From: Desulfosudaceae bacterium
GTDB lineage: Bacteria; Desulfobacterota; Desulfobacteria; Desulfobacterales; Desulfosudaceae
Assembly: GCA_963674745.2 (NCBI GenBank)
Contig: CAXXDV010000001.1
Span: 32,001 to 96,000, forward strand
DNA: 64,000 nt
Reading direction: 5' to 3'
The translations under genes were made by a program, and so were the position numbers. The notes beneath the pieces were generated by a model. It made no database searches. It was not told where the DNA came from and saw only the letters and a program-made list of their open reading frames with translations. Below are positions 5,730 to 35,958 of the stretch, in pieces. Position 1 is the first letter of the stretch. The number at the start of each line of letters is the position of its first letter.

Positions 5730-6776
5730 ATGGAAAATTTTGCCCAATTTGCCATAGACAACCTGAAATTTTTTGGCGCATCCGAAGTGGGTGTTGTCAC
5801 CACCGAAACCATGGCCGGCGGACCACCTTCAGCCGACCTGACCTATCTCTGGCCCGACGCCAAATCAGCAATCGTTTTTACCGTACCGCTCAATCAGGAC
5901 CTGATCCCCGGTTTTTTAAAAAAAGAAGACCAGATCTCCCATGAGAAAGACAGTTTTCAAACCAACGTGATCGCGGGCGGCCTTTCCCTGTGGGCGGCCA
6001 ACTGGGCCAGGCAGCGGGGCTTTGAGGCCATGCCCTATGTACCCAACGACAGCTACCGGGCAGACACGCCCATGGGCGTACTGGACATGCAGCCGGAGAT
6101 TTCTTTGCGTTACCTGGCGGTGCGCGCGGGACTGGGCTGGTTCGGTTTTTCCGGCAACCTGATCACGCCCGATCATGGCGCGGCCGTAATCATCGGCTGC
6201 GTCCTGACCAGCGCGGAACTGGAGCCCACCGACCCGCTGCCGCCTGAAGACAATTATTGCGACAACTGCAAGCTCTGCATGGCCGCCTGCTCCTCGGGCC
6301 TGATGGATCCCGAGGAAAAGACAACCATTACCCTTGGCGGGGTTACCTTCGAGTATCCCAAACGGCGTTCCTATATGCGGTGCAATTACGTGTGCGGCGG
6401 TGTTTCCGGCCTGCATCCCTCAGGCAAATGGTCCACCTGGTCGCCCGGCCGGTTCCCGCTGCCGGAAGATGATCAGGGCTTTGCCGACGCCATGGTAAAA
6501 AATATCGGCGCCATGATCAACCGTCCGGATTCAGGCGGCGGATACGCCCACAGCCTGATCCCGGGTGGAAAAATACACCAGACCTGCGGTAATTGTCAGA
6601 TCATCTGCCACCCGGATAAAAACGTCCGCAAAGAACGGTTTGAAATGTTAAAAGCGGGTGGTGTGGTCGTGCAGCATGAGGACGGCCGCCTGGAAGCCAT
6701 GTCTCCGGAAGCGGCTGAAAAATTTACCGCTGATATGCCGGCAGACAGGAAAAAACTGTATTGCGAGGTTGTTTAA
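5730..6776 (+). CDS. QueG/reductive dehalogenase-like cobamide Fe-S protein (paralogue 1)
   Basis: SLRYLAVRAGLGWFGFSGN, CDNCKLCMAAC, CNYVC and CGNCQIIC motifs. Confidence 0.85.
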   Translation: MENFAQFAIDNLKFFGASEVGVVTTETMAGGPPSADLTYLWPDAKSAIVFTVPLNQDLIPGFLKKEDQISHEKDSFQTNVIAGGLSLWAANWARQRGFEAMPYVPNDSYRADTPMGVLDMQPEISLRYLAVRAGLGWFGFSGNLITPDHGAAVIIGCVLTSAELEPTDPLPPEDNYCDNCKLCMAACSSGLMDPEEKTTITLGGVTFEYPKRRSYMRCNYVCGGVSGLHPSGKWSTWSPGRFPLPEDDQGFADAMVKNIGAMINRPDSGGGYAHSLIPGGKIHQTCGNCQIICHPDKNVRKERFEMLKAGGVVVQHEDGRLEAMSPEAAEKFTADMPADRKKLYCEVV

Positions 6777-6813
6777 CAGAAAACATTGCGTCCTGAACAC
6801 AGGAGAAAACAAC

Positions 6814-8193
6814 ATGGGTGCTTTAGAACAGAAAATTAAGGCCTTTGCCAAAAAACAGGGGGTGGCCATTGTCGGCATTGCCGGTCCGGACAGGCTTGAC
6901 GGGCCGCCGTCCCTTGACCCCACCTATACCATGAAAGGTGCCAGATCCATCGTATCGCTGGCGATTCCCATGGACACGGACGCGATCTACCAGTTTCTCG
7001 GCAAAAAATCCTACCAGCCGCACCTGACAGACCAGACCAGGCAAAACGCCCGGCTATACCGAATTGCCGCCTATATTGCCGGATACATTCAGTCGCTTGG
7101 GTACCGCGCCAGGGAAGTGCCTTCCAACAACTCATACCGGCGATCGCCTGACACTTTCGCGACCCACCCGAGTTTTTCCCACCGGTTCGGGGCCATTGCT
7201 TCCGGTATTGCCGCCCAGGGCTGGTCCGGCAATGTCATGACCGAAGAGTTCGGCGCGGCCATGTACCTGGGCACGGTCGTCACCGAGGCGGTCCTTGAAA
7301 GCGACAAGTCAAGATACGCGCCCCGCCACTTTATCGATGAATACTGCATCAAATGCCGAATGTGCGAAAAAACCTGCGTGGCCGGTATGTTTGAACCAAA
7401 AAACGAAGAGTATGTCCTTTTAAACGGCGAACTTCATCCGCGTGGCAAAAGGCGGAACATCGACCTGTGTAATGCCTCCTGTTTTGGTCTTCATTCCCTT
7501 TCCCGGGACAAAAAATGGACCACCTGGGGGACCCGGTGGATTGATGAATGGACAGAAAAAGAAGTCGACCCGGACCAAAAATTAAAATTGCGTTATACAT
7601 TGATGAAAGAAGGCGTTCTTTCCGGCGACTCCACCCCGAGGTACTCTTTGATCAGGCAGACCGCGGCGCTCCTGCAACCGGAAGAACTGATAGAAAGCCA
7701 TCTTGAAAGCGTCGCCCATGCTGGAAACGAAACCGAACGGTTCAAACGCCTGGGGCCGTTTATGGACAGATTGAATGTGGTCGGCAGAAAACTGCTCAAA
7801 AACGAGCGTATCCTGACCTGTGGCCAGTGCGCGCTGGTGTGCGGCCCGTCCATCGATGAATGCAGAAACCGGTATAACGCGCTTATGGAAGGGGGTTTTG
7901 TGGTTGATGGCCCCGATAATGAAGTAACAGTGGTCAAGACATATGAGGAAGCCTTAAAAATGCGGGCCCGTAATTCACCAAAAATCCCTTTAAAAGACCG
8001 GGTTAAAGATTTTATACTGTCCGGGGCCATGTGGCACGCCTACTACGGCGGTGTGGAGCCGAAATCCATGATCAGCGGTTTCGTTTATGACCGCAAGCTG
8101 AAAAAAGCCGTGACCGACCGCATAACCGGCCACTTTGATACATCGAAAAAGCGGCATGAAACAGCATCAGCGCTGGAGGACCTTGCCAATTAA
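6814..8193 (+). CDS. QueG/reductive dehalogenase-like cobamide Fe-S protein (paralogue 2)
   Basis: AGGAG RBS, ATG at 6814. SHRFGAIASG, CIKCRMCEKTC, CNASC and CGQCALVC motifs. Collinear with paralogue 1. Confidence 0.85.
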   Translation: MGALEQKIKAFAKKQGVAIVGIAGPDRLDGPPSLDPTYTMKGARSIVSLAIPMDTDAIYQFLGKKSYQPHLTDQTRQNARLYRIAAYIAGYIQSLGYRAREVPSNNSYRRSPDTFATHPSFSHRFGAIASGIAAQGWSGNVMTEEFGAAMYLGTVVTEAVLESDKSRYAPRHFIDEYCIKCRMCEKTCVAGMFEPKNEEYVLLNGELHPRGKRRNIDLCNASCFGLHSLSRDKKWTTWGTRWIDEWTEKEVDPDQKLKLRYTLMKEGVLSGDSTPRYSLIRQTAALLQPEELIESHLESVAHAGNETERFKRLGPFMDRLNVVGRKLLKNERILTCGQCALVCGPSIDECRNRYNALMEGGFVVDGPDNEVTVVKTYEEALKMRARNSPKIPLKDRVKDFILSGAMWHAYYGGVEPKSMISGFVYDRKLKKAVTDRITGHFDTSKKRHETASALEDLAN

Positions 8194-8313: not shown

Positions 8314-8832
8314 ATGAAAAAATCGAAAGATGAAATCCTGGATACGGCATTCAGTGCGGCCAAACAATACGAGATGAAAAGCGGTGGCTGCCCCCAGTGC
8401 ACGTTGGCGGGCATTTTCGATGCCCTGGAAATTGACAATGATGATATTTTCAAAGCCGCCACCGGTCTTGCCGATGGAATCGGCCTGTCCGGCAATGGTC
8501 ATTGCGGAGCGCTTTCCGGCGGCGTACTGGCCATCAGCTATCTTTTTGGAAGAGACAAAAAAGACTTTGGCGACATCATGAAACTGGTGGAAGCAAACCT
8601 TCTGGCCAAAAAACTGGTTGAGCGGTTTATGGAAAAATACGGGACCTGCCGGTGCGCCGACCTGCAGACCTCGTTTTTCGGTCGGTTTTTCAATCTGCTT
8701 GATCCGAATGATTTGCAGGCCGCCCTGGAAGCGGGCATGCTGGAAAGGTGCTCCTCACTGGTCGGGGAAGTCGCCCGGATGACCACCGAGATCATTCTTG
8801 AGGCACAGGAAAAAAAAGGAGTCCTCTCATGA
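8314..8832 (+). CDS. C-GCAxxG-C-C family redox protein
   Basis: GCPQC, GHCGALSGG, TCRCADL and ERCS motifs. GGAG RBS before ATG at 8314. Confidence 0.9.
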   Translation: MKKSKDEILDTAFSAAKQYEMKSGGCPQCTLAGIFDALEIDNDDIFKAATGLADGIGLSGNGHCGALSGGVLAISYLFGRDKKDFGDIMKLVEANLLAKKLVERFMEKYGTCRCADLQTSFFGRFFNLLDPNDLQAALEAGMLERCSSLVGEVARMTTEIILEAQEKKGVLS

Positions 8833-9929
8833 CAGAATCCGTTTATGTCAATCTCTGGAAAAAATTAAATGACGGCCCCCAGACCGCCCCGACGGATGCC
8901 AAAGGGAATCCCCAGCCTTCTTTTATAAAGCACCTTGAACTGTGCTACAGCCCGGAAGAGGCTGAACTGATTCAGCACATGGAACGCCCCGGGCGCTTTT
9001 TGTCGACTCAGGAGGTGGCTGATCGGGCCGGCAAAAAGCCTGAAGAGGTGGAAGCCATTTTGAGCGGCATTAATAAGAAAAACGGGCTTCTCGGGATGCC
9101 CGGTTTTTATTCACTTCCGCCCATGCCGATCATTTTTAATATCCACCAGTTCTATCCCGAAATAAAACCTGACGACCTTAAAGCCGCTGAACTTTATCAG
9201 GATTATTTCATCAAAGACAAATTTTACCGGTATTATGAAGGCTCTATGAAGGGGACACCGGTCTTTAGAACCATTCCTGTAGAAATGTCCATTGAGGCGG
9301 AACAGCGGGTATTGCCGGCCGAAGAAGCCCATGATTTTATCCTGAATCATGCGCCTGAAGAACTGGCGCTGGTTCCCTGCCCCTGCCGCACCCGCACGGA
9401 AAAAATGGGCATCCGTGAATGCAAAGACAAAAACCCGGTTGCCTCGTGTATCATGATGGGACCGGTAGCCCTTCATTTTGAAATGCTTGGCCTGGGCAAA
9501 CGGGTCACCCGCCGGGAAGCGGTCGCGTACTTTGATGAAATGCAGGAACTGGGTCTGGTGGGCCAGACAGACAATGCCTTGGCAGGTAACGCGATTATCT
9601 GCCTGTGCTGCGGCTGCTGTTGTTCCCAGTTGCGCGGCCGGACAAGATGGGGTAACATGTCTGCCATACTGCCGTCAAATTTTATTCCCGTGGCCGGGGA
9701 TGACTGTATACAATGCGGACTCTGTATGGAACGCTGCCCGTTCGGGGCCCTGGCCATGGATGAAGAGACCGAGCGCCCGGTTGTTTCGCCGGATAAATGC
9801 ATTGGCTGCGGCGTATGCACATTAACCTGTCCCCAGGAAACATTAAAATTGACCCGGCTTGAACGCTCCACACCTTTTAATACAGGAAAGGAAATGATTA
9901 AAACCATCGCCCTGGAAAACAGGGCATGA
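8829..9929 (+). CDS. 4Fe-4S binding protein (N-terminal HTH-like, Cys-cluster and 2[4Fe-4S] domains)
   Basis: CPCR..C..C, CLCCGCCC, CIQCGLCMERCP and CIGCGVCTLTCP motifs. Confidence 0.88.
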   Translation: MTESVYVNLWKKLNDGPQTAPTDAKGNPQPSFIKHLELCYSPEEAELIQHMERPGRFLSTQEVADRAGKKPEEVEAILSGINKKNGLLGMPGFYSLPPMPIIFNIHQFYPEIKPDDLKAAELYQDYFIKDKFYRYYEGSMKGTPVFRTIPVEMSIEAEQRVLPAEEAHDFILNHAPEELALVPCPCRTRTEKMGIRECKDKNPVASCIMMGPVALHFEMLGLGKRVTRREAVAYFDEMQELGLVGQTDNALAGNAIICLCCGCCCSQLRGRTRWGNMSAILPSNFIPVAGDDCIQCGLCMERCPFGALAMDEETERPVVSPDKCIGCGVCTLTCPQETLKLTRLERSTPFNTGKEMIKTIALENRA

Positions 9930-9951
9930 TACCCCTTAAAAGGAGAATAAA

Positions 9952-11019
9952 ATGGCAAGAGATATCTACAGAGAACTTCAGGAAAGGCTGGACCTTTTTT
10001 CCATTGGTTTTCCACCCGCGCCTTCCGGCGTGGAGATCACGATTTTAAAGCGACTGTTTTCAGAAGAAGACGCCGATCTCTTCCTTAAATTAACGCCCCT
10101 CCTGGAACCGGCTGAAAAGATAGCCGAGAATCTGGGATTGCCGGCAGAGGAGACCAAATCCAGGCTGGCGGACATGGCCGGCCGGGGCCTGCTGTTTTCC
10201 AAAACCAAGGGGGAGACAACGCTTTACGGGGCCACGCCATTTGTCCATGGGATCTTTGAATACCAGGTAAACCGGCTGGACAAGGAGCTGGCGGAATTAA
10301 TGAATCAATACGGCATGGAAGCTTTGGGCATTAACATGTTGCAGCACGGGGGCTCTTTTTTGCGGACCATTCCGGTAAATCAGGCCCTGGCCCCGGAAAA
10401 TCAGGTGGCCTCCTATGATGACGCCCGGGAAATTTTAAAAAGCAAACGCACTGTTGTGGTAACGGATTGTATCTGCCGTAAAAAACAGAACACGCTTGAC
10501 AAGGGCTGCGGCAAAGTCGTCGAGGCCTGCTTCATGTTTGATACCATGGCGGAATACTACCTGGCGCACGACCTGGGTCGCCAGGTCACCGTTGATGAGG
10601 CCATCAAAATCCTGGAAAAAGCCCGGGAACAGGGACTGGTTACCCAGCCGGCCACGGCCCAGAACCCTGACGGCATGTGCAATTGCTGCGGAGACTGTTG
10701 CGGCGTCCTTCAAGCCATTAATTTTCATCCCAAACCGTCAGAAATTGTCAGTTCCAATCATTATGCCGTTCTGGACCGTGATGCCTGCACCGGGTGCGAA
10801 ACCTGTATCGACCGGTGCCAGACCAACGCCCTGTCAATGGGTGAAGATGATCTGGCCGTCCTGAACCCGGACCGGTGCATCGGCTGCGGTCTGTGCGTTG
10901 TTACCTGCCCGTCTGAAGCCCTTACCCTTCAGACGAAATCAGCAGAAGACCAGTATCAGCTTCCCAAGGACGGCATGGAGCAGATGGTGGCATTGGCCCA
11001 GAAGCGGGGTGTTCTCTAA
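9952..11019 (+). CDS. 4Fe-4S binding protein, paralogue of the upstream gene
   Basis: CICR..C..C, CNCCGDCC, CTGCETCIDRC and CIGCGLCVVTCP motifs. Confidence 0.88.
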   Translation: MARDIYRELQERLDLFSIGFPPAPSGVEITILKRLFSEEDADLFLKLTPLLEPAEKIAENLGLPAEETKSRLADMAGRGLLFSKTKGETTLYGATPFVHGIFEYQVNRLDKELAELMNQYGMEALGINMLQHGGSFLRTIPVNQALAPENQVASYDDAREILKSKRTVVVTDCICRKKQNTLDKGCGKVVEACFMFDTMAEYYLAHDLGRQVTVDEAIKILEKAREQGLVTQPATAQNPDGMCNCCGDCCGVLQAINFHPKPSEIVSSNHYAVLDRDACTGCETCIDRCQTNALSMGEDDLAVLNPDRCIGCGLCVVTCPSEALTLQTKSAEDQYQLPKDGMEQMVALAQKRGVL

Positions 11020-13415: not shown

Positions 13416-14444
13416 ATGGCCATTCGTCGTAAAATAAAAGACAGATACCGCCGGTTTCCTTATCTTTCAGATTTCGCGGGTATGAAAAGCGCCATCGGTG
13501 AAATGCGCGGGCTCGGCTTTCCCAAACAGCCGCCGCTGAATACGGCCTTATCGCCGCAGGACGACGTGCCGGTGCTTGACGAGCAATGGTTCATCGATGA
13601 AATAAAGCATAAAATCGCCACGCATCCTGAAAACTGCCTGGAGTTTCCCTATGCCACAGAACCCATATTCGATGAACCGCTGGTGGGGTTTGTCAGGGGC
13701 GATGATCCGATTTTTCAAAAGTTTAAATCCATCATCGGCCCTCACCATTATACACCCCAGGAAATCATGGCCTGGCAGGCGGAAAAAAACAATGTGCCCC
13801 CCCCGCCGGCCGAAGAGCTCTCGGTGGTCTCTTATGTCATGCCGATTACCCGGGCGACCAAACAGCAGAACGCCGAATGTACCGAATGGCCGGCAGAACG
13901 CTGGGCCCAGACCCGGTTGTCCGGCGAAATTTTCAGCCAGGAATTTACCCGGGAAATCGTTACCTTTCTGATGAACAAAGGGGTGCTGGCAATCGCACCT
14001 GATGTGACACCGTTGTTTAACAAAAAGCGCTACCCGGAGGTGGGCTGGGCCTCACCCTGGTCGCACCGGCACATTGCCTATGCCGCCGGCCTGGGCACCT
14101 TCGGCATGCACGATTTTCTGATTACGGAAAAAGGCTGCGCCCACCGGCTGGGCAGTTTCGTGGTCCACAAACCGCTTCAACCCAACCGGCAGCGACCTGA
14201 CGACATCCATGCCTATTGCCTTCAATACCAGGGAAAGCAGTGCCTCAAATGCGCCAGACGTTGTCCGGTCGGCGCCATCAGCAAAGAAAACGCCCATGAC
14301 AAGGAAAAATGCTATAAACATGTGGCCAGTTCGCTGAAGTACTGCCTGAAAAACTATCATATTTTCATTTACGGCTGCGGCATCTGCGCCACCAATGTCC
14401 CCTGTGAATCCGGGATTCCGGTTAAGAGGGAGACCGCAGGTTAA
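13416..14444 (+). CDS. QueG/reductive dehalogenase-like cobamide Fe-S protein (paralogue 3)
   Basis: WSHRHIAYAAGLGTFG, CLKCARRCP and GCGICATNVPC motifs. Confidence 0.88.
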   Translation: MAIRRKIKDRYRRFPYLSDFAGMKSAIGEMRGLGFPKQPPLNTALSPQDDVPVLDEQWFIDEIKHKIATHPENCLEFPYATEPIFDEPLVGFVRGDDPIFQKFKSIIGPHHYTPQEIMAWQAEKNNVPPPPAEELSVVSYVMPITRATKQQNAECTEWPAERWAQTRLSGEIFSQEFTREIVTFLMNKGVLAIAPDVTPLFNKKRYPEVGWASPWSHRHIAYAAGLGTFGMHDFLITEKGCAHRLGSFVVHKPLQPNRQRPDDIHAYCLQYQGKQCLKCARRCPVGAISKENAHDKEKCYKHVASSLKYCLKNYHIFIYGCGICATNVPCESGIPVKRETAG

Positions 14445-14490
14445 AAAAAACACCATTGCGCAACCAGCCTGTTATCAGGGTGACTACAAC

Positions 14491-15792
14491 ATGAACAGTA
14501 ACAGTGTGATCCCCGAACGTTTCCCCTCGGTGCTGATAGACCGGTTTGCCTGCGTCATGGAGCGCCATCTCGCTGACATGAAAATTCAGATGGAGATGGT
14601 ATTTGATCACAGGCTCGATCTGGACCGGCTGCAGCGGGCGTTTCGGCTTGCGCTGGATGCGGAACCTGTCCTCGGATGCCGTTTCGTGGACCGCCTACCA
14701 GAGTTGCACTGGCAAAGGCTGCCGCACATTGATCACGAACTCCTGGAACTGACAGATGACCTGGAGCGGTTCTCCGCCTTCCGTACACGTAAGATCAACC
14801 CGTTCGAAGGGCTACAGATTGAGGCGGCCGTTCTGCGTGAGGGAGAAGGTGACAGGCTTTTGATCAAATTAAGTCATCTGGTCGGAGATGCGGGCGGGAT
14901 TAAAGAAACTGTCGAATTGATTGCCGATATCTACAAAAGGCTGGAATACGATCCGGGTTATGTGCCCCGCTCAAACTGTTCAGGCAGCCGCTGTATGAGA
15001 CAGGTGGTCAAAAAGGTTCCCTGGCACGCTTACCCGCGAATACTCCGGAATGCCATGCAGGAATTGATATCCAACGGCCTGCCATCGACTACATTTGCCC
15101 TGCCGTCGCCAAATGGCCCTCGGGAAGGGCTTGATTACATTACAGTTGATTTACCAGATGAAAGGGTGGCCCGTATTGCTGCGTACAGCAGATCTTTCGG
15201 GGCCACTCTTAACGATATCCTCATAGCCGCGTTTTACAGGGCGGGAGTGGACACCGGGGAATGGGACGGCAGGAAGAAACTGAGGCTGATGACCACTGTC
15301 GATTTGAGACGCTGGTACATACCCGAGGGGCGGGGTGAGTCGATTGCCAACCTGAGCACGTTCGAGTTCGTAAATCTTGGACGGGATCTGGGGACCGATT
15401 TTGATGATACGCTGAAAAGAATTTCCCGTTTAACCGGCCGGAGGAAAAACAGCTGGATCGGTCTTAACATGAGTATTGTTCTCCCGGCACTTCTGGCATT
15501 ACCGCATGGCTGGCTCATGAAGGCACTTGAGAAAGTCGCTTCGGCGTTTATTATGAACGGAAAATTCATGCCGGCATTAACCAACATGGGGCCGATAGAA
15601 CCAGACCGGATACGTTTCGGGAAACCACCGCGACGGGCTTGGCTGCTGGCGCCGGCCCCTTATCCGCCAAATTTCGTTGCCGGAGTCACGGGCTATCGGG
15701 GGAGCCTGACACTCTCGGCCGGCGTCTACCCGGCAACAAGGAAAACGGCGGAAAAAATGTTCAAACGGATCCTTGACGAATTGCCGGAATAG
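14491..15792 (+). CDS. Stand-alone condensation-domain / CoA-dependent acyltransferase
   Basis: HLVGDAGG (HxxxD), ATLND, VDLRR and LTNMG motifs. Start placed at ATG 14491. Confidence 0.82.
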   Translation: MNSNSVIPERFPSVLIDRFACVMERHLADMKIQMEMVFDHRLDLDRLQRAFRLALDAEPVLGCRFVDRLPELHWQRLPHIDHELLELTDDLERFSAFRTRKINPFEGLQIEAAVLREGEGDRLLIKLSHLVGDAGGIKETVELIADIYKRLEYDPGYVPRSNCSGSRCMRQVVKKVPWHAYPRILRNAMQELISNGLPSTTFALPSPNGPREGLDYITVDLPDERVARIAAYSRSFGATLNDILIAAFYRAGVDTGEWDGRKKLRLMTTVDLRRWYIPEGRGESIANLSTFEFVNLGRDLGTDFDDTLKRISRLTGRRKNSWIGLNMSIVLPALLALPHGWLMKALEKVASAFIMNGKFMPALTNMGPIEPDRIRFGKPPRRAWLLAPAPYPPNFVAGVTGYRGSLTLSAGVYPATRKTAEKMFKRILDELPE

Positions 15793-16808: not shown

Positions 16809-17489
16809 ATGCCTTGCGCAAGTTGCCAAACGCAAACCTGCTTCACCGGGTCGGGTGAAATGCCGGCCGAATGCCCGGAGAGATATCGGGAAGAAAACAG
16901 ACGGCAGGAACCGGAAAACCGGTTTATCGAATACGCGAAACAAATACGCGACAAAAATGCCGACCGCCTTGATGAATTCATCGAATATGCCCGTTTCATG
17001 GCTTACAAAAGAATCGGGCTGGCGGGTTGTATCGGTCTTCACGACGAGTTGAGGGTCATCAGCGGCCTGTTGCAAAAGGCCGGATTTACGGTGGCATCCG
17101 TGATGTGCAAGACCGGAAGCCTGAAGAAAAAATTTGTCGGGGTGCCGGCCAAAAATCGTATGACAACCCAAACGGGCTACAACATTGGGGTGATTGCCTG
17201 CAACCCCGTGGCCCAGGCGCTTATACTGAACAAGGAGAAAACCGAACTGAACGGCATCATCGGGTTGTGCGCGGGACACGATTCCGTATTCATGAAGCAT
17301 TCCACGGCACCGGTAATCACCCTTATCGCCAAAGACCGTTCAAACGGGCACAACCCGGCCTCCATCCTGTACAATTTCTACGGCGACAATTTTTTCGCAA
17401 GAAGGCCGAACCCGAAAGGCGCCTTCAAATTCAATGCCAGGCATATCCGGCCGATTGATATTGCAAGAATGATCAAAAGAAAAATATAA
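16809..17489 (+). CDS. DUF1847 family metal-binding protein
   Basis: IGLAGCIGL, CNPVAQA, GLCAGHDSVF and KDR..GHNP motifs. Confidence 0.88.
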   Translation: MPCASCQTQTCFTGSGEMPAECPERYREENRRQEPENRFIEYAKQIRDKNADRLDEFIEYARFMAYKRIGLAGCIGLHDELRVISGLLQKAGFTVASVMCKTGSLKKKFVGVPAKNRMTTQTGYNIGVIACNPVAQALILNKEKTELNGIIGLCAGHDSVFMKHSTAPVITLIAKDRSNGHNPASILYNFYGDNFFARRPNPKGAFKFNARHIRPIDIARMIKRKI

Positions 17490-17499
17490 GGAACCGACA

Positions 17500-18099
17500 A
17501 TGAAAATGGCTCAATGCGCGTCCTGCTTCGAACAATTGTGTGTCGGCGGGACAAAACAAACAAAAGATTACTGCCCTGCTCACCTTTATCCGGAGATATA
17601 TAAAGACGCCGAAAAAATCTATCAGGAGGATAAGGAAACACGGTTAATGGCCAGAAATGCCGCTGTAATGGAATCCCGGGGGTATATCCTCTGGCCCCGG
17701 CTCAAGGATATCATCGAGTTCTCCAGAGCCATGAACCACCAAAAGATAGTGGTTCTTTTCTGCCCGGACGTATGGAGAGAAGCAAAAAAGACCGGCCGGA
17801 TACTTTCGGAAAACGGTTTTATCGTCGCTTCGAGAGTATGCGGAATCGGCAAATCAAGCCCTCAGGCACCGGATGAATACGCAGCCGAGATCAACGCCTT
17901 ATCCTTCGACATTGCCGTCAATGCCGGGCTTTGCGGCCCTTTTGAAGCCCGGGTCGTAAACTTGTTGAAATTCCCTGTGTCGACGTTTATTGCCAGGGAT
18001 AAAAAATTGAACAACCATCCGGCTTCGGCGGTTTATTTCTCCGATAAATGGCGGGACTGGGCCAAAGAGGTCTACCGCGATAAACTGGGACTGAAATAA
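17500..18099 (+). CDS. Divergent DUF1847-like paralogue
   Basis: CASC..C..CP, WPRL..IIEF, GLC and RDK..NHP motifs. Confidence 0.75.
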   Translation: MKMAQCASCFEQLCVGGTKQTKDYCPAHLYPEIYKDAEKIYQEDKETRLMARNAAVMESRGYILWPRLKDIIEFSRAMNHQKIVVLFCPDVWREAKKTGRILSENGFIVASRVCGIGKSSPQAPDEYAAEINALSFDIAVNAGLCGPFEARVVNLLKFPVSTFIARDKKLNNHPASAVYFSDKWRDWAKEVYRDKLGLK

Positions 18100-29876: not shown

Positions 29877-31727
29877 TCAGGCGTGGGCCGCCAGCGGAGC
29901 GCCGGCACCCCGTCGATCATGCACCTTCCGCCCGTGGGCGGACAGAATGGTTTTTCTCAAACGAATGCTTTTCGGGGTCACCTCGATCATTTCATCGTCG
30001 CTGATGAAGCGAATGGCTTTTTCCAGGGTCATTGTCGGCACCGGGGTAAGGGTGACAGCCTCATCCTTGCCCGAAGCCCTCATGTTGGTCAGCTGCTTGG
30101 TTTTGCAGGGGTTGACGTTTAAATCCGTGTCCCGGTTGTATTCCCCGACAATCAGGCCTTCATATACAACATCCCCGGGGCGGACAAAAAGAATCCCCCG
30201 GGCTTCCAGGTTAAACAGGGCAAAGGCCACGGCTTTGCCTGAACGGTCTGAGACCAGGCTGCCGGTAAACCGGCCGGGAAAGTCTCCCCGATAGGGTTCA
30301 TAACCGGAAAAAGCGGTGTTAATGATACCGGTGCCTCGTGTATCGGTTAAGAACTCGTCCCGAAAGCCGATCAACGCCCGGGAGGGAACGGAAAACACCA
30401 GCCGGATGCGGTCATCGTCCTGCCGTTCCATACCGACCAGGCTGCCTTTTTTCTGAAGCAGTTTTTCAGTTACGATGCCGCTGTAAGCGGCCTCACAATC
30501 GATCAGCAGGTCTTCAACAGGCTCTAATCGACGACCATCCTGATATTTATAAATCACCTGGGGACGGCCCACGCAAAGTTCGAATCCTTCCCGGCGCATG
30601 GTTTCAATCAGGATGGCCATCTGGAATTCACCCCGCCCCTTGACGATAAAACTTTCCTTGTCTTCGGCGGCTTCCACCTGCATGGAGACGTTCATGAGGG
30701 TTTCCTTGACCAGACGGGCGTGAATCTTGCTGGACTGCACCAGTTTCCCCTCATGACCGGCCAACGGAGAGGTGTTGGCGGCAAACCGCATGAACACCGT
30801 GGGGTCATCTACCCGGATCCGGGGCAACGGATCGGGGCTTTCGTCGGTACAGATGGTATCACCGATATGCACGTCTTCTATGCCGGACATGACAATGATG
30901 TCACCGGCCCTGGCTTCCGAGGTGTTCTGCAGCCCCGGGCCATTGTATACCTGAAGCTGGGACACTTTTAACGGGATCTGGCCGCCGTCTTCATGAATGC
31001 AGACCAGGTTTTTTCTGGATGTCACCGAACCGTTGACCACCTTTCCAATGGCCAGGCGCCCCAGATAATCCGAGTAGCTCAGATCGGAGACCAGCATCTG
31101 GAACGGTGCTTCCGGATCAGCCGACGGCGCAGGGATCGCATCGATCATCATGTCCAGCAGCAGGTGAAGGTTTTCTCCATTGTCGGTCGGCGTTTTCATG
31201 GCAACCCCCTGCCGGCCGACGGCATACAGATAGGGGAACTCGATCTGCTCATCCGTCGCCCCGAGATCAATGAGCAGGCTGTAAATTTCTTCCAGGACTT
31301 CCGCGGGCCGGGCATCACCACGGTCGATCTTGTTAATGACCACAATAATTTTAAGATCGTTTTTCAATGCCTTGTCCAGCACAAACCGGGTCTGGGGCAA
31401 GGGGCCTTCGGAGGCATCGACCAGAAGAATAGCGCCGTCAGCCATGGAGAGCGCCCGTTCCACTTCTCCGCCGAAATCGGCATGTCCGGGCGTATCAATA
31501 ATATTAATTTTAGTGTCTTTCCAGTTGATGGCGCAGTTTTTGGCGGCAATGGTAATCCCCCGCTCCCGCTCCAGATCCATGTTGTCCATCAGTCGTTCGT
31601 CAACCGTCTGCCCGTCCCGGAACAAGCCGCTCTGTTTGAACATGGCATCCACCAGTGTGGTTTTACCATGGTCAACATGGGCGATAATGGCGATATTCCG
31701 TATCCCTTTGTTTTTCATCGTTTTCAT
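29877..31727 (-). CDS. typA: Translational GTPase TypA/BipA
   Basis: AHVDHGKTT, DTPGHADFGGEVER and GRGE motifs, with the TypA C-terminus. Confidence 0.97.
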   Translation of the reverse strand: MKTMKNKGIRNIAIIAHVDHGKTTLVDAMFKQSGLFRDGQTVDERLMDNMDLERERGITIAAKNCAINWKDTKINIIDTPGHADFGGEVERALSMADGAILLVDASEGPLPQTRFVLDKALKNDLKIIVVINKIDRGDARPAEVLEEIYSLLIDLGATDEQIEFPYLYAVGRQGVAMKTPTDNGENLHLLLDMMIDAIPAPSADPEAPFQMLVSDLSYSDYLGRLAIGKVVNGSVTSRKNLVCIHEDGGQIPLKVSQLQVYNGPGLQNTSEARAGDIIVMSGIEDVHIGDTICTDESPDPLPRIRVDDPTVFMRFAANTSPLAGHEGKLVQSSKIHARLVKETLMNVSMQVEAAEDKESFIVKGRGEFQMAILIETMRREGFELCVGRPQVIYKYQDGRRLEPVEDLLIDCEAAYSGIVTEKLLQKKGSLVGMERQDDDRIRLVFSVPSRALIGFRDEFLTDTRGTGIINTAFSGYEPYRGDFPGRFTGSLVSDRSGKAVAFALFNLEARGILFVRPGDVVYEGLIVGEYNRDTDLNVNPCKTKQLTNMRASGKDEAVTLTPVPTMTLEKAIRFISDDEMIEVTPKSIRLRKTILSAHGRKVHDRRGAGAPLAAHA

Positions 31728-32020: not shown

Positions 32021-32049
32021 TTGACATATAAAATCGACTGTGTTATAAA
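32021..32049 (+). promoter_or_regulatory. sigma70 promoter for the amidase-mamK unit
   Basis: TTGACA-17-TATAAA with extended -10 TG. Confidence 0.7.
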
Positions 32050-32074
32050 ATTTATGTTAAACATAATTTAGACA

Positions 32075-32190
32075 ACCGGCAGAATGACTGCAGCTCCGCG
32101 ACCTGAACCTTGCAGGTGTGGCCAAACGGCCTTAATCCAGGACAACTCGTGACAGATCCGGGTAAACTTTTTATTTTATTCTTTAATCTT
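32075..32190 (+). other. Candidate structured RNA leader (unassigned)
   Basis: GC-rich island in an AT-rich intergenic region. ACCTG/CAGGT and GGCC/GGCC hairpins, flanking CCGG arms, then a T-rich tract. Confidence 0.4.
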
Positions 32191-32242
32191 TATTTAAAAA
32201 TATGAACTAATTAATGATGGTAATGCGTTAAGTGGTTTTAAG

Positions 32243-33313
32243 ATGTTTTTCAGGCGCCAGCAAAATGTAAATGAAAAAGCGGCTATTCTTCGGGAGATCT
32301 ATTACGATAACCTGAAAATGGCCGGTAAACCGATTGCGGATCCCGGCACGGCCTCGATGTGGCGGGCCTTTATAAAACCGCTTCAGACACTGGCGGTGAT
32401 GCTGGTGGTGGCTTTGTTTCCCTTCTCGGAGCTTGACCCGGCACTTCATGTCAAAGAAAAGCGTTCTTTGCCCGTATTGTCTTCGTCTGTCGAGGCGGCA
32501 TTTAACATAGCACAGCAAGCTGGTGCAATGCCTGCCTGGGGTTATGTGCCTCCCGACAATCCGGATTTGGCGGATTACAGTCGTTTGCTTTCGGGAAACG
32601 ATAAGGTACGGTTGTCATCTCTGTTCGGACTTGGTGTTAAAACAATCGTTATCGATCCCGGCCATGGCGGCAGGGACCCCGGTGCCATAGGCGCAAGGGG
32701 CACGATGGAAAAAGATATTACCCTTGATGTGGCGCTGAAACTCAAATCAAGACTGATCGGGCTGGGCCTTTACAATGTGCTGCTCACCCGTGAAAAAGAC
32801 CATACCCTTTCACTGGCTGACAGGGTCCAATTTGCAAAAGACAACAAAGCGGACCTGTTTATTTCCGTTCATGTGAATTCACTTCCCAATGAACGGTTGA
32901 ATATTATTGAGACTTACTATTTTGGCGCGCCGCTGAATTCGGAAACGATTCGTCTGGCAGAACAGGAAAACAAAGAATCTCATTTTTCAGTAGGAGAGCT
33001 TGACGCGATTATCCAGGATTTCGGTAACACGTTAAAGCGGCAGGAATCGGCGAAACTGGCGACCGCTATTCAGACCAGTCTCTTTAAAAATCTTAAATAC
33101 CAGGATGCCCAGGTCCTGGATTTTGGTATCAAGATGGCGCCGTTTGTCGTTTTGTCCCAGATAGAAGTACCGAGTGTTTTGGTCGAGATATCATGCATAA
33201 CAAAAGCCAGGGAGGAAAAGAAACTGGCCTCTTCCAAATACCGCTCAAAAGTGGCATCTTTTATTGAAGAAGGCATTGTCGTTTATTTGGAAACTCAGGA
33301 TTTCAAATTATAA
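32243..33313 (+). CDS. Membrane-anchored N-acetylmuramoyl-L-alanine amidase (Amidase_3)
   Basis: IDPGHGGRDPGA, EKDITL, SVHVN and LVEISC Zn/catalytic motifs. Hydrophobic segment near residues 45-62. Confidence 0.93.
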   Translation: MFFRRQQNVNEKAAILREIYYDNLKMAGKPIADPGTASMWRAFIKPLQTLAVMLVVALFPFSELDPALHVKEKRSLPVLSSSVEAAFNIAQQAGAMPAWGYVPPDNPDLADYSRLLSGNDKVRLSSLFGLGVKTIVIDPGHGGRDPGAIGARGTMEKDITLDVALKLKSRLIGLGLYNVLLTREKDHTLSLADRVQFAKDNKADLFISVHVNSLPNERLNIIETYYFGAPLNSETIRLAEQENKESHFSVGELDAIIQDFGNTLKRQESAKLATAIQTSLFKNLKYQDAQVLDFGIKMAPFVVLSQIEVPSVLVEISCITKAREEKKLASSKYRSKVASFIEEGIVVYLETQDFKL

Positions 33314-33326
33314 GAGGAGAAAACAC

Positions 33327-34391
33327 ATGAATGAAAACAATCAGGCCCCGGACACCGCTGAAGAGACAAACGACAAGACTGAAAACACTGAGGTCCTTAA
33401 TATCGGTATTGATTTAGGTACTTCCAGAAGTGCCATATCGGCCAGCAATGGCAGCAAAATCTGGATTGAAAGCTTCGTCGGCTGGCCCAAGGACTTTATC
33501 GCGCAAAAAGTTCTGGGCAAACAAACCCTGTTCGGTGCAGAAGCGCTGGAAAACAGATTGTCACTGAAGATTTCCCGCCCCCTGGAACGGGGTGTCATCA
33601 AAGACGGTTCCGAGCACAGCAAAACGGCCGTGAAAGAGCTGGTCGGTCATTTAATCAAAATGGCTAAAAAAAGCAACAACTACACAAAAACCCGCGCCAT
33701 CGTCGGGGTACCGCCCGAATCTTTCAAGGTCAATAAAATGGCCATCAGGCAGCTTGTGGCCGATTTTGCCGACGCCATCATGGTGGTCTCCGAACCTTTC
33801 TCCGTGGCTTACGGGCTCAACGCCTTGAACAACGCCATGGTCATCGATATCGGTGCGGGAACCATGGATTTCTGTATCATGCGCGGAACAATGCCCTCTG
33901 ATGAAGAGCAAAAAACAATTCTAAACGCCGGTGATTTTATTGATCAGCAGCTTAAAACCTATTTGAGCGAACGTTACCCGAAAGCTGATTTCACGGATCA
34001 TATGGTTCGCCGTTTCAAGGAAGAGCACAGCTTTGTGGGAGAACCGGAAAAGAAAGTGATGGTGGAGATCCCCGTCGAAGGGAAGCCCACCATGCACGAT
34101 ATTACAGCTGAAATGCGCCGTTCCTGCGAAAGCATTTTACCGGGGCTGGAAGAAACCATGCTGGAAATGATTGCCGGTTTTGATCCGGAATTTCAGAAAA
34201 AGGTCCGGAACAATGTAATCCTGGCCGGCGGCGGCAGTCAGATCAAAGGTCTTCGGGAACACATTGAGGGCGTTCTCAAAGAATACGGTCCGTGCAATGT
34301 GCAAGTCATTTCCGACCCGCTTTTCGGCGGTGCCGACGGCGCCCTTGAGCTGGCCAAGGAAATGCCGGATGAATACTGGGAAAACAGTTAA
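33327..34391 (+). CDS. MamK-family actin-like ATPase
   Basis: GAGGAG RBS, ATG at 33327. GIDLGTS, VGWPKD, VVSEPF.VAYGL, DIGAGT, AGGGSQI and LAKEMP..YW match the MamK rather than the MreB pattern. Confidence 0.9.
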   Translation: MNENNQAPDTAEETNDKTENTEVLNIGIDLGTSRSAISASNGSKIWIESFVGWPKDFIAQKVLGKQTLFGAEALENRLSLKISRPLERGVIKDGSEHSKTAVKELVGHLIKMAKKSNNYTKTRAIVGVPPESFKVNKMAIRQLVADFADAIMVVSEPFSVAYGLNALNNAMVIDIGAGTMDFCIMRGTMPSDEEQKTILNAGDFIDQQLKTYLSERYPKADFTDHMVRRFKEEHSFVGEPEKKVMVEIPVEGKPTMHDITAEMRRSCESILPGLEETMLEMIAGFDPEFQKKVRNNVILAGGGSQIKGLREHIEGVLKEYGPCNVQVISDPLFGGADGALELAKEMPDEYWENS

Positions 34392-34454: not shown

Positions 34455-34520
34455 AGGGTTCAAGGATTCAAGGGGTCGAGGGGTCAAGTGTTCGTTGCGG
34501 TTCTTGACCCCTTGGCTCCT
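34455..34520. repeat. 8-nt-periodic inverted repeat element, copy A (overlaps the tilS 3' end)
   Basis: GGTTCAAG-GATTCAAG-GGGTCGAG-GGGTCAAG ... CTTGACCCCTTGGCTCCT. Confidence 0.75.
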
Positions 34521-35958
34521 TCTTAAAAATCATCGCCTTCAGCACCCGGGTGGTGCCCGGCCTAACCTTGACCGGATCAGCCGTGCGGTAACCGGCCAGC
34601 CAGATGATCTGTCCCCCTGAAGCAACCACCGGGCAGGCCCGGCGTTGCTTTCGGGGGATCTTGTTATTAATAAAAAAATCTTTGACCTTCTGGTGTCCCT
34701 TCATGCCCAGAGGAACAAAGCGATCTCCGGGCTGAATGTTTCTCACTGTCAGGGGAAAAACGAGTTTTTCCAGATCGAAATAAGCGACATCCGCCCGGCT
34801 CTCTTTAACGTTTCCGACAGCTTCAGGCAAGACAACGGTAAAATCTATTCTGACGCCGATGTCCGGGATTATTAACGAATCGTTTCCTGCTCCCTGATCA
34901 AGCACGTTCCGGGAAAAAACAGGCCCGGTCCCGGTTATCCCTTCGGCCCGGTCCGAAGCCGGCCCGAAAGCCAACCGGTCTCCGTCTTTGTCCACCACAA
35001 CACCATCGGTCATCTGTATCGTAACGGATTGGTCTTTATCAAGGCACCCGACGACCGCCTCAACCCGCTCAAAGGTGATCTTTAGCAGATCGCCCTTTAA
35101 GCTCGCCAGCGCTTTTCTGATCAGCCGCCGTTGGACAGCCCGCGGCTGCGCCGTCATCAGGGGAACAGAAAGCGTCACGCGGTGGCCTTTGCCCTTCAGC
35201 AGCATCCCGGCAAAAGCATCATCAATTAATGCCTCAAGCCACTCATCTTCCGCCCGAAAAATTTCAGCCAGACGGTTCAAATTTCCGGTCAGATTCGCAT
35301 TGTAGCCCCGCTGCAAACAGGGAATAAGCTCATGACGGACACGATTCCTCAAAAAGCCCGTGTCGTCATTGGTTTCATCGACAACAAATTCCAGGCCGGC
35401 TTTTTCGACCGCTGTTTTAATCTCGGCCCGGGTCAGGTTGATCAGCGGGCGGATGATTTTGCCCTCCCGGACAGGCGGGATACCGGACAGCCCGGTCCGG
35501 CCGCTGCCGCGCAGTAACCCCATCAATACCTGCTCGGCATTGTCGTCCGCATGATGCCCGGTGGCAATCTTGTCATAGCCCTGTGCGGCAGCCGTTCTGT
35601 CAAAAAAATCATACCGCACCCGCCGGGCGGCATCTTCTATGGAAAGCCGGTGCTTTTCCGCAAAACCAGGGATGTCAACGAGTTCCGCGTGAAACGACAA
35701 CCCGTATTCACCGGCCAGTTGCCTGACAAAGGCCATGTCTCCGTCGGCAGCGCTCCCTCTTAGACCGTGATTGAGATGTGCCACGCCGAGACGGGAAAGG
35801 GATAACCGTTCGGCCAGCCGGACCAGGCACCACAGCAGGGAGACCGAATCAATCCCCCCTGAAACGGCCACCAGAACCGATTGGCCGGGAAGGATCATGT
35901 GATGATCGGCCATGGTCCGGGCGACTTTTTTCAACATATCCTGGTTAAAATCCTTCAA
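34468..35958 (-). CDS. tilS: tRNA(Ile)-lysidine synthetase
   Basis: AVSGGIDS PP-loop, HHADDNAE, IRPL and RNRVRH motifs, with the TilS_C domain. Confidence 0.96.
   Translation of the reverse strand: MKDFNQDMLKKVARTMADHHMILPGQSVLVAVSGGIDSVSLLWCLVRLAERLSLSRLGVAHLNHGLRGSAADGDMAFVRQLAGEYGLSFHAELVDIPGFAEKHRLSIEDAARRVRYDFFDRTAAAQGYDKIATGHHADDNAEQVLMGLLRGSGRTGLSGIPPVREGKIIRPLINLTRAEIKTAVEKAGLEFVVDETNDDTGFLRNRVRHELIPCLQRGYNANLTGNLNRLAEIFRAEDEWLEALIDDAFAGMLLKGKGHRVTLSVPLMTAQPRAVQRRLIRKALASLKGDLLKITFERVEAVVGCLDKDQSVTIQMTDGVVVDKDGDRLAFGPASDRAEGITGTGPVFSRNVLDQGAGNDSLIIPDIGVRIDFTVVLPEAVGNVKESRADVAYFDLEKLVFPLTVRNIQPGDRFVPLGMKGHQKVKDFFINNKIPRKQRRACPVVASGGQIIWLAGYRTADPVKVRPGTTRVLKAMIFKKEPRGQEPQRTLDPSTP

Follow-up and report, generated by a model that had tools for sequence, protein, structure and literature searches.

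What does an actin of the MamK family do beside a wall-cutting enzyme in a genome that holds no magnetosome cluster? The question is raised by two adjoining genes in a stretch of DNA from a Desulfosudaceae bacterium (NCBI GenBank assembly GCA_963674745.2, contig CAXXDV010000001.1, positions 32,001 to 96,000 of the forward strand). We refer to this whole stretch of 64,000 nucleotides (nt) as the window and number positions from its first letter. The first gene encodes a bitopic N-acetylmuramoyl-L-alanine amidase of 356 amino acids (aa; 32243-33313, plus strand) and the second a MamK-family actin-like ATPase of 354 aa (33327-34391, plus strand, with an ATG start at 33327). Few bacterial actins have assigned roles, these being MreB, FtsA, the ParM-like proteins and MamK, and the presence of MamK is taken to mark magnetotactic bacteria.

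MamK homologues in non-magnetotactic genomes are already in print (10.1101/682252, citing Lefevre 2013), and a survey of 2798 MamK-like sequences kept 227 after a scaffold check for other Mam proteins (PMC7449369). Our literature search on MamK or bacterial actins together with amidases found no paper describing the pairing and none assigning these MamK homologues a function. The initial annotation of this DNA, a reading of the letters alone, had proposed a non-magnetosome module in which a MamK filament positions a wall hydrolase through the cytoplasmic tail of the hydrolase. This proposal is supported by the conserved pairing of the genes, the absence of a magnetosome cluster and the results on the tail; binding, polymerisation into filaments, positioning (as opposed to anchoring or regulation) and the cellular role of the module we infer. 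With a probability of about 0.68, the two proteins form one trans-membrane unit, an actin-guided amidase that works like the bactofilin-LmdC system discussed below.

The amidase and actin genes are paired in at least eight phyla

We surveyed the surroundings of actin homologues in 41 related genomes, in 401 genomes sampled from the phylum (together the own-phylum samples) and in a scan of species-representative genomes. In the own-phylum samples every actin at least 62% identical to the query had an amidase homologue directly upstream (6/6), and MamK-family matches of 48% identity or less had no amidase in the 1.5-kb flank. The species-representative scan, with at least 236 confirmed relatives, added 80 loci among the matches listed, at 49-76% identity and all linked to an amidase. 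At all 86 loci (6 and 80), the amidase gene lies upstream of the actin gene on the same strand.

The labels of the 80 loci include Desulfobulbaceae, Desulfobacteraceae and Syntrophobacteraceae on the Desulfobacterota side. The others are Nitrospirota (Thermodesulfovibrionales), Gammaproteobacteria, Acidobacteriota (Thermoanaerobaculia and Holophagales), Rhodothermales/Bacteroidota, Rokubacteria, Aminicenantes and Binatia, so that the 80 listed loci span at least eight named phyla. The amidase directly adjoins the actin in 78 of them. About 1.9 kb separates the two genes in the remaining two, L117 and L124, which are both from Rhodothermales. Another locus, from a Syntrophobacteraceae metagenome-assembled genome (L099), has an in-frame stop within the actin match and may be a pseudogene or an assembly error.

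A clade-profile search at 504 bits or more matched 10 genomes among 201 from Nitrospirota and 17 among 201 from Acidobacteriota, each count including a centre genome already among the 80. An adjoining amidase was present at all 25 loci newly fetched from these two phyla, some of whose genomes also fall within the species-representative scan, and at none of five Nitrospirota loci with matches near 400 bits. Pairing was therefore kept in every clade member examined, as a synteny survey suggested in the initial annotation was meant to reveal. The same annotation had called this MamK an orphan. That label is wrong, because the pair is a widespread, horizontally mobile two-gene module.

No third gene family was conserved across the 59 loci of our flank analysis, where the next largest family occurred in 8 loci (in 22 of 81 loci, chiefly of high GC content, our crude open reading frame (ORF) caller missed the actin). 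At 8 Nitrospirota-type loci, a gene with a receiver domain and a C-terminal SPOR domain lies just after the actin gene (L067:7057-8208 and seven others). This gene is specific to one Nitrospirota subclade and does not belong to the core module. The window lacks a counterpart, because tilS converges on the pair. Such a neighbour fits amidase activity, since SPOR domains bind amidase-processed glycan.

The amidase-linked actins form one clade within the MamK family

The actin scored 415 bits against the NCBIfam MamK model NF040964 (cut-off 400, profile positions 1-329 of 335), which is borderline, as members in magnetosome-bearing genomes score 406-482 bits. It failed the NCBIfam MreB model PRK13927 (78.6 bits, cut-off 293), scored 201 bits against BeeR (cut-off 530) and gave MreB_Mbl/Actin-type matches in Pfam. 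The closest solved structures by sequence were MamK 5jyg (270 bits, residues 24-352), BeeR 8r2n (138 bits) and, at only 52 bits, MreB 1jce. The MamK-type signatures that had been read from the translation agree with the family profile and the solved MamK structure.

The protein belongs to the same actin subfamily as MamK of Magnetospirillum magneticum AMB-1 (5jyg, 5ljv, 5ljw), down to the C-terminal LAxEMPxxYW helix, and keeps its nucleotide-binding motifs. We checked the phosphate 1 (DxG), phosphate 2 (DxGxGT) and adenosine (GGG) motifs of the actin fold; D29, G31, T32, D174, G176, G178, T179, G301 and G302 are invariant in 74 sequences. The actin has a 23-aa acidic N-terminal extension. Residues specific to its clade include R84, G94, V102, A143 and F182, as well as R141, which lies at the modelled interface described below.

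A phylogenetic analysis of 113 sequences (IQ-TREE quick search, LG+C20) placed all 86 amidase-linked actins in a single clade inside the MamK family, with a support of 100 in the Shimodaira-Hasegawa-like approximate likelihood ratio test (SH-aLRT) and a stem of 0.6. Nineteen other MamK-family sequences fell outside this clade, and MreB lay far outside on a stem of 5 changes per column. The tree agrees with the family assignment made in the initial annotation. Canonical MreB was rejected as the identity of the actin on both the profile score and the outgroup stem. The MreB of this genome is a separate gene, 1.9 Mb away at C1:1968962, and the genome has one MamK-family gene and one MreB gene.

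The sister of the amidase-linked clade, at a support of 84, consists of MamK from two MamI-carrying genomes (G048 and G089). Magnetosome MamK differs from the actin studied here in that the latter belongs to a separate clade and has a wall amidase, rather than magnetosome proteins, as its partner. Magnetosome MamK may have been recruited from a non-magnetic, ancestor-like relative represented by the amidase-linked clade, or the relationship may run the other way.

Pairwise identities of the amidase catalytic domain and the actin correlate closely (r = 0.91; the maximum of 1000 label permutations was 0.12). In a genome of the same genus (G002, locus L004), the actin is 62% and the amidase 50% identical to the proteins of the window, and both are nearest to Nitrospirota-type pairs. 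Since G002 holds a Nitrospirota-type version of both genes, the pair travels as a unit, and its presence there indicates that the whole pair was replaced or independently acquired. Judged from these identities, the correlation and G002 show joint inheritance and joint transfer; alone, they are no evidence of contact between the proteins.

Some MamK-family lineages in the sample have neither amidase nor MamI, namely G257, G315/G366 and the genus of G059. Two tandem copies in G257 (L053, G257:C12; 492 bits) lie beside a YgiQ radical-SAM gene and mla genes, and G315 (L035/L050) and G366 (L036/L049) have two MamK-family copies each. A MamK-family form of 332 aa (L038-L042 and L044; family f54) occurs in seven of eight sampled genomes of one family. 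Lineages without amidase or MamI imply that MamK-like actins outside magnetotaxis are diverse.

The genome holds no magnetosome cluster

The genome measures 5.55 Mb in three contigs and is 99.96% complete. Magnetosome profiles run on it gave only scattered matches below their cut-offs: MamI 29.6 bits (cut-off 80), MamQ 93.7 (250), MamB 194 (350) and MamA 90.9 (200). For a stricter test, we took a true magnetosome cluster in G355, which belongs to the same order, and compared all its ORFs with this genome by tblastn. That cluster contains two MamK-family genes, MamA, MamI, MamQ and MamB, with its MamI scoring 78 bits. Besides the actin, its ORFs found only scattered generic matches (LemA-like, CDF and HtrA-like). 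A magnetosome island elsewhere in the genome, which the initial annotation had named as the simpler reading should one exist, is rejected by both searches.

The weak MamI match is an 81-aa ORF outside the window (G000:C3:2191327-2191524; E 3e-6), with no equivalent in 14 control genomes. Other MamI-like ORFs of about 100 aa (38-47 bits) were seen away from magnetosome clusters in G355:C49, G047, G025, G021 and G048:C88. Their positions outside clusters suggest a MamI-like family of small membrane proteins unrelated to magnetosomes.

The amidase is membrane-anchored and resembles AmiA

Pfam found a single domain in the amidase, Amidase_3 (PF01520), at residues 135-345 and 161 bits against a gathering score of 27. 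Neither AMIN nor LysM was found by Pfam, in line with the first reading of the gene. An AlphaFold model built with 74 homologues (mean predicted local distance difference test (pLDDT) 78.7) has helices at residues 2-26 and 34-58 and a confident domain at 134-355. The N-terminal tail followed by a transmembrane helix, as first described, is seen in these helices and in the hydropathy profile.

Four parts follow one another on the plus strand. The tail bears a helix motif (aa 8-29, NVNEKAAILREIYYDNLKMAGK; 32264-32329) that is the predicted actin-binding element. The single transmembrane helix (about aa 43-61; 32369-32425) coincides with the hydropathy maximum and the second AlphaFold helix, and basic residues precede it. 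The periplasmic linker (about aa 62-133; 32426-32641) is modelled at low confidence and poorly conserved, with pLDDT below 50 at residues 63-123 and no consensus in the alignment. The catalytic domain (32642-33307) contains a regulatory insert, LAEQEN.

The four zinc ligands and catalytic residues, H141, E156, H210 and E315, which the initial annotation had recognised as H, E, H and E, do not vary among the 74 aligned homologues. The same holds for E242 and N243 of the insert (LAExEN motif; 74/74). By sequence and by fold, the best solved relatives are Escherichia coli AmiA (8c2o) and Bartonella AmiB (3ne8). The catalytic domain superimposes on 8c2o with a template modelling score of 0.85 on the target and a root-mean-square deviation of 2.6, followed by AmiC and Bartonella AmiB. 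Its NCBIfam scores stay below the cut-offs of all three families (AmiA 116 against 400, AmiC 96 against 700, AmiB 95 against 532).

In the residue alignment, E242 corresponds to AmiA chain position 134, which is Glu167. In AmiA, this residue is the latch of the blocking helix, which holds the enzyme in an auto-inhibited state until binding of a LytM activator (PMC10268282). The stretch after E242 aligns with the AmiA interaction helix and is hydrophobic, although modelled at low confidence. From these alignments we conclude that the protein is probably an active but auto-inhibited amidase of the division type. It shares with AmiA, AmiB and AmiC the Amidase_3 fold, the zinc ligands and the regulatory insert with its latch glutamate and following hydrophobic helix. 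Those enzymes are exported soluble proteins, with an AMIN targeting domain in AmiB and AmiC, whereas this amidase has an N-terminal membrane helix and a cytoplasmic tail. Being membrane-anchored and tailed, without AMIN, it is unusual. It also has Asn212 where AmiA has Asp135 (numbering of PMC10268282).

The amidase tail is predicted to bind the actin

Because the actin has no export signal, the amidase shares a compartment with it only through the tail. The tail motif in the window, KAAILREIYYDNLKMAGK, is conserved from Desulfobacterota to Acidobacteria, and variants at other loci include RQEILKGIYEENLRIIGK, KREILKGIYQENLWVAGK, RASMLRRVYEENRRIKD and IKRQLLRDLVQQNVDLIEG. A regular expression for the motif matched 75 of the 86 upstream amidase ORFs, and most misses are motif variants or ORFs cut by contig ends. 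Asn23 of the tail is invariant (74/74 homologues).

We predicted the complex of the actin with tail residues 1-45, each with an alignment of 74 sequences. The model reached an ipSAE of 0.78, and the best of three controls 0.44. In the calibration, 116 of 157 solved complexes attained the score mark, as did 2 of 215 mismatched pairs. At least 87% of contacts are common to the runs, with a partner pLDDT of at least 64. Tail residues 8-29 contact actin residues 137-141, 151-154, 162-168, 187-189 and 342-354, which places the tail in the groove between subdomains IA and IIA and against the C-terminal helix. R141 at this interface is R or K in 84 of 86 clade members, and L, A or F in most other MamK-family sequences. 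Tail residue 20 is Y or F where actin 346/350 are M/Y, and V or I where they are A/D; both 20-346 and 20-350 are modelled contacts.

The model supports, but does not show, binding of the tail helix to the actin. The tail had been put forward as the link between the two proteins, with structure prediction as one way to check it. The prediction passes its controls, and the link is favoured by the motif with its invariant Asn across phyla, by the complex model and by the one lineage-level paired change.

A model for an actin-guided amidase

Taken together, these results point to an internal scaffold, as yet undescribed, by which a wall-cutting enzyme is positioned. The actin would be cytoplasmic, ATP-binding and probably filament-forming. 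The amidase would be held in the inner membrane by one helix, with its short N-terminal tail facing the cytoplasm and its AmiA-like, presumably auto-inhibited catalytic domain tethered in the periplasm by some 70 residues of flexible linker. The tail helix (ILxxΦYxxN) would dock in the IA/IIA groove beside the C-terminal helix of the actin, and the actin polymer would set where the amidase gathers in the envelope and hence where stem peptides leave the glycan strands. Catalysis probably still needs a periplasmic activator of the LytM type, because the latch glutamate is kept. A likely purpose would be to split the wall locally, for the separation of daughter cells or the control of shape. Two further amidases are encoded in the genome, one of the AMIN type (661 aa) and one short (238 aa), which would make the module a specialised, accessory route.

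Functionally, the nearest analogue is the bactofilin BacA with the bitopic M23 endopeptidase LmdC of Hyphomonas neptunium and Rhodospirillum rubrum. The two genes adjoin in 226 species, and the tail of LmdC (aa 1-38) is reported to bind BacA with a dissociation constant of about 15 uM (PMC10945521). Both systems combine adjoining, widely conserved genes for a polymer and a bitopic hydrolase with a conserved cytoplasmic tail. They differ in that LmdC is an endopeptidase with a beta-hairpin tail working with a nucleotide-free bactofilin, whereas here an ATP-binding actin, an amidase and a helical tail are predicted from sequences and models.

Short partner helices also bind bacterial actins in ParM-ParR and MreB-RodZ, and the ParM site is the IA/IIA groove, as modelled here. 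ParM-ParR differs in that the present module has no DNA-binding adaptor or centromere and its partner is an enzyme.

With this pairing, a large share of the MamK homologues outside magnetosome clusters gains a concrete, testable identity. Carriers of the amidase-linked clade are found in Desulfobacterota, Nitrospirota, Acidobacteriota, Rhodothermota/Bacteroidota, Gammaproteobacteria and others, which warns against using mamK alone as a marker of magnetotaxis. If the binding is real, the module would add to bactofilin-LmdC an independent second case in which a cytoplasmic polymer places a wall hydrolase through the membrane, and would be the first to use an actin and an amidase.

Alternative explanations

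Several points weigh against an actin that positions the amidase. The module is rare in the phylum, with 3 carriers among the 401 genomes sampled, and so is dispensable for most relatives; in the family, 4 of 13 genomes carry it. The constant linkage holds for the members examined, because the clade samples were picked by similarity to the query. In the complex model, the calibration applies only roughly, since the score is the model's own confidence and we built the alignments ourselves. The groove may attract helices generically, given that one control reached 0.44, and solved peptide-in-groove complexes of other actins may have primed the prediction. The paired change at positions 20, 346 and 350 is a single evolutionary event, because it is confined to one clade.

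The location of the groove adds to these points. In ParM, the IA/IIA groove is used for contacts along the filament and is also where the adaptor ParR binds, at filament ends only. The BeeR paper describes IB/IIB contacting IIA of the next subunit in the filament. With the modelled groove in use along related actin-like filaments, the tail might bind monomers or filament ends only. By analogy, the amidase may then be a cap, a nucleator or an end-tracked cargo, not a passenger on a static track. In one such variant, which we regard as rather doubtful, the tail would bind the groove that is free at one filament end only, and a growing or treadmilling MamK-type filament would carry or push the amidase through the membrane, as ParM pushes ParR-bound plasmids. 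If true, the end-bound amidase would be the first case of a cytomotive filament directly driving a peptidoglycan hydrolase, with a motor-like drawing of the line of wall cleavage.

It is unlikely that the tail is an anchor, nucleator or cap for a filament whose real task lies elsewhere, with other cargo, or that the actin is an ATP-driven switch on the amidase. The modelled site does suit an anchor or cap, being the end-binding site of ParR in ParM and overlapping the along-strand contacts of related filaments, and no membrane-binding element is seen in MamK-family actins themselves. Against this, the 59 analysed loci share no third cargo or adaptor gene, and the invariant catalytic and latch residues of the amidase imply that wall cleavage is under selection together with the actin. 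A switch is opposed by the disordered linker of about 70 residues, which makes allosteric signalling across the membrane unlikely.

The two proteins could also be merely co-expressed because their functions are needed simultaneously, with no contact between them. Operon partners often do not bind each other, and adjacency alone is weak grounds for contact, as 7 of 44 blind-picked neighbours pass the complex test. The tail, however, has its motif with an invariant Asn across at least eight phyla, the complex model passes its controls, and the genes are co-inherited and co-transferred, which leaves mere co-expression improbable.

A mobile-element cassette, made of a plasmid or phage segregation actin and a lysis amidase, would account for the patchy distribution and the clear horizontal transfer, and Amidase_3 also occurs in endolysins (in lower ranks of the fold search). 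The flanks here are housekeeping genes (typA and tilS) and vary between the loci of the flank analysis with no recurring mobile genes, and an auto-inhibited AmiA type with a membrane anchor is unlike an endolysin layout; we consider such a cassette very improbable. A displaced or leftover mamK that lost its cluster would explain the NCBIfam name and the sister position, but is hardly credible, being already contradicted by the scattered sub-cut-off Mam matches, the generic G355 matches and a fully supported separate clade whose examined members are always linked to an amidase.

Layout and transcription of the locus

The coordinates and sequence of the pair agree with the two-gene unit first described. 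The TAA stop of the amidase (33311-33313) is followed immediately by a GAGGAG ribosome-binding site (33314-33319, plus strand), which was read from the sequence and ends 7 nt before the actin ATG, giving a gap of 13 nt between the genes. Both flanks were identified, confirming the placement of the pair between typA/bipA upstream (29877-31727, minus strand) and tilS downstream (34468-35958, minus strand), which converges on it.

A promoter of its own had also been claimed for the unit; what the sequence offers is no more than a match to the consensus. A sigma-70-like candidate (32021-32049, plus strand) with TTGACA at 32021-32026, a 17-nt spacer and TATAAA at 32044-32049 lies about 195 nt before the amidase start. 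The promoter scan, which demands T at the last position, does not include it, and promoter-like sites occur here at chance level (5 against 3.8 +/- 1.7 expected). The 195-nt leader has no Rfam match at E<=1, and the idea of a riboswitch or known RNA was dropped. No terminator is listed on the plus strand downstream of 34391.

Contigs from RNA libraries of marine-sediment communities (two studies), at about 98% identity to the window, map to portions of both genes. The data are small shares of three metatranscriptome runs, so that stretches lacking cover are uninformative. Two of the contigs span the gene boundary, X2 record 11 (33225-33439) and X3 record 17 (33280-33549). They weakly suggest expression and co-transcription of the pair in close relatives, given that a contig need not stem from one transcript and that RNA libraries may contain DNA.

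The other ORFs of the window are metabolic and housekeeping genes. Among the 57 scanned (E<=1e-12 for 50, E<=1e-5 or looser for the other 7), there was no MreC, MreD, RodA or any Mam family, which bears out their reported absence from the 64 kb. ORFs at 5730-8190, 8829-11016 and 13416-15789 have no Pfam match at E<=1e-12; near them, two adjoining DUF1847 genes lie behind a LigB-family gene (16809-18096). A 38-nt G-rich element at 34455-34492 overlaps the 3' end of the tilS ORF. With 36 occurrences in the genome at five mismatches or fewer, on both strands, and matches to many unrelated metatranscriptome contigs, this element resembles a small dispersed repeat.

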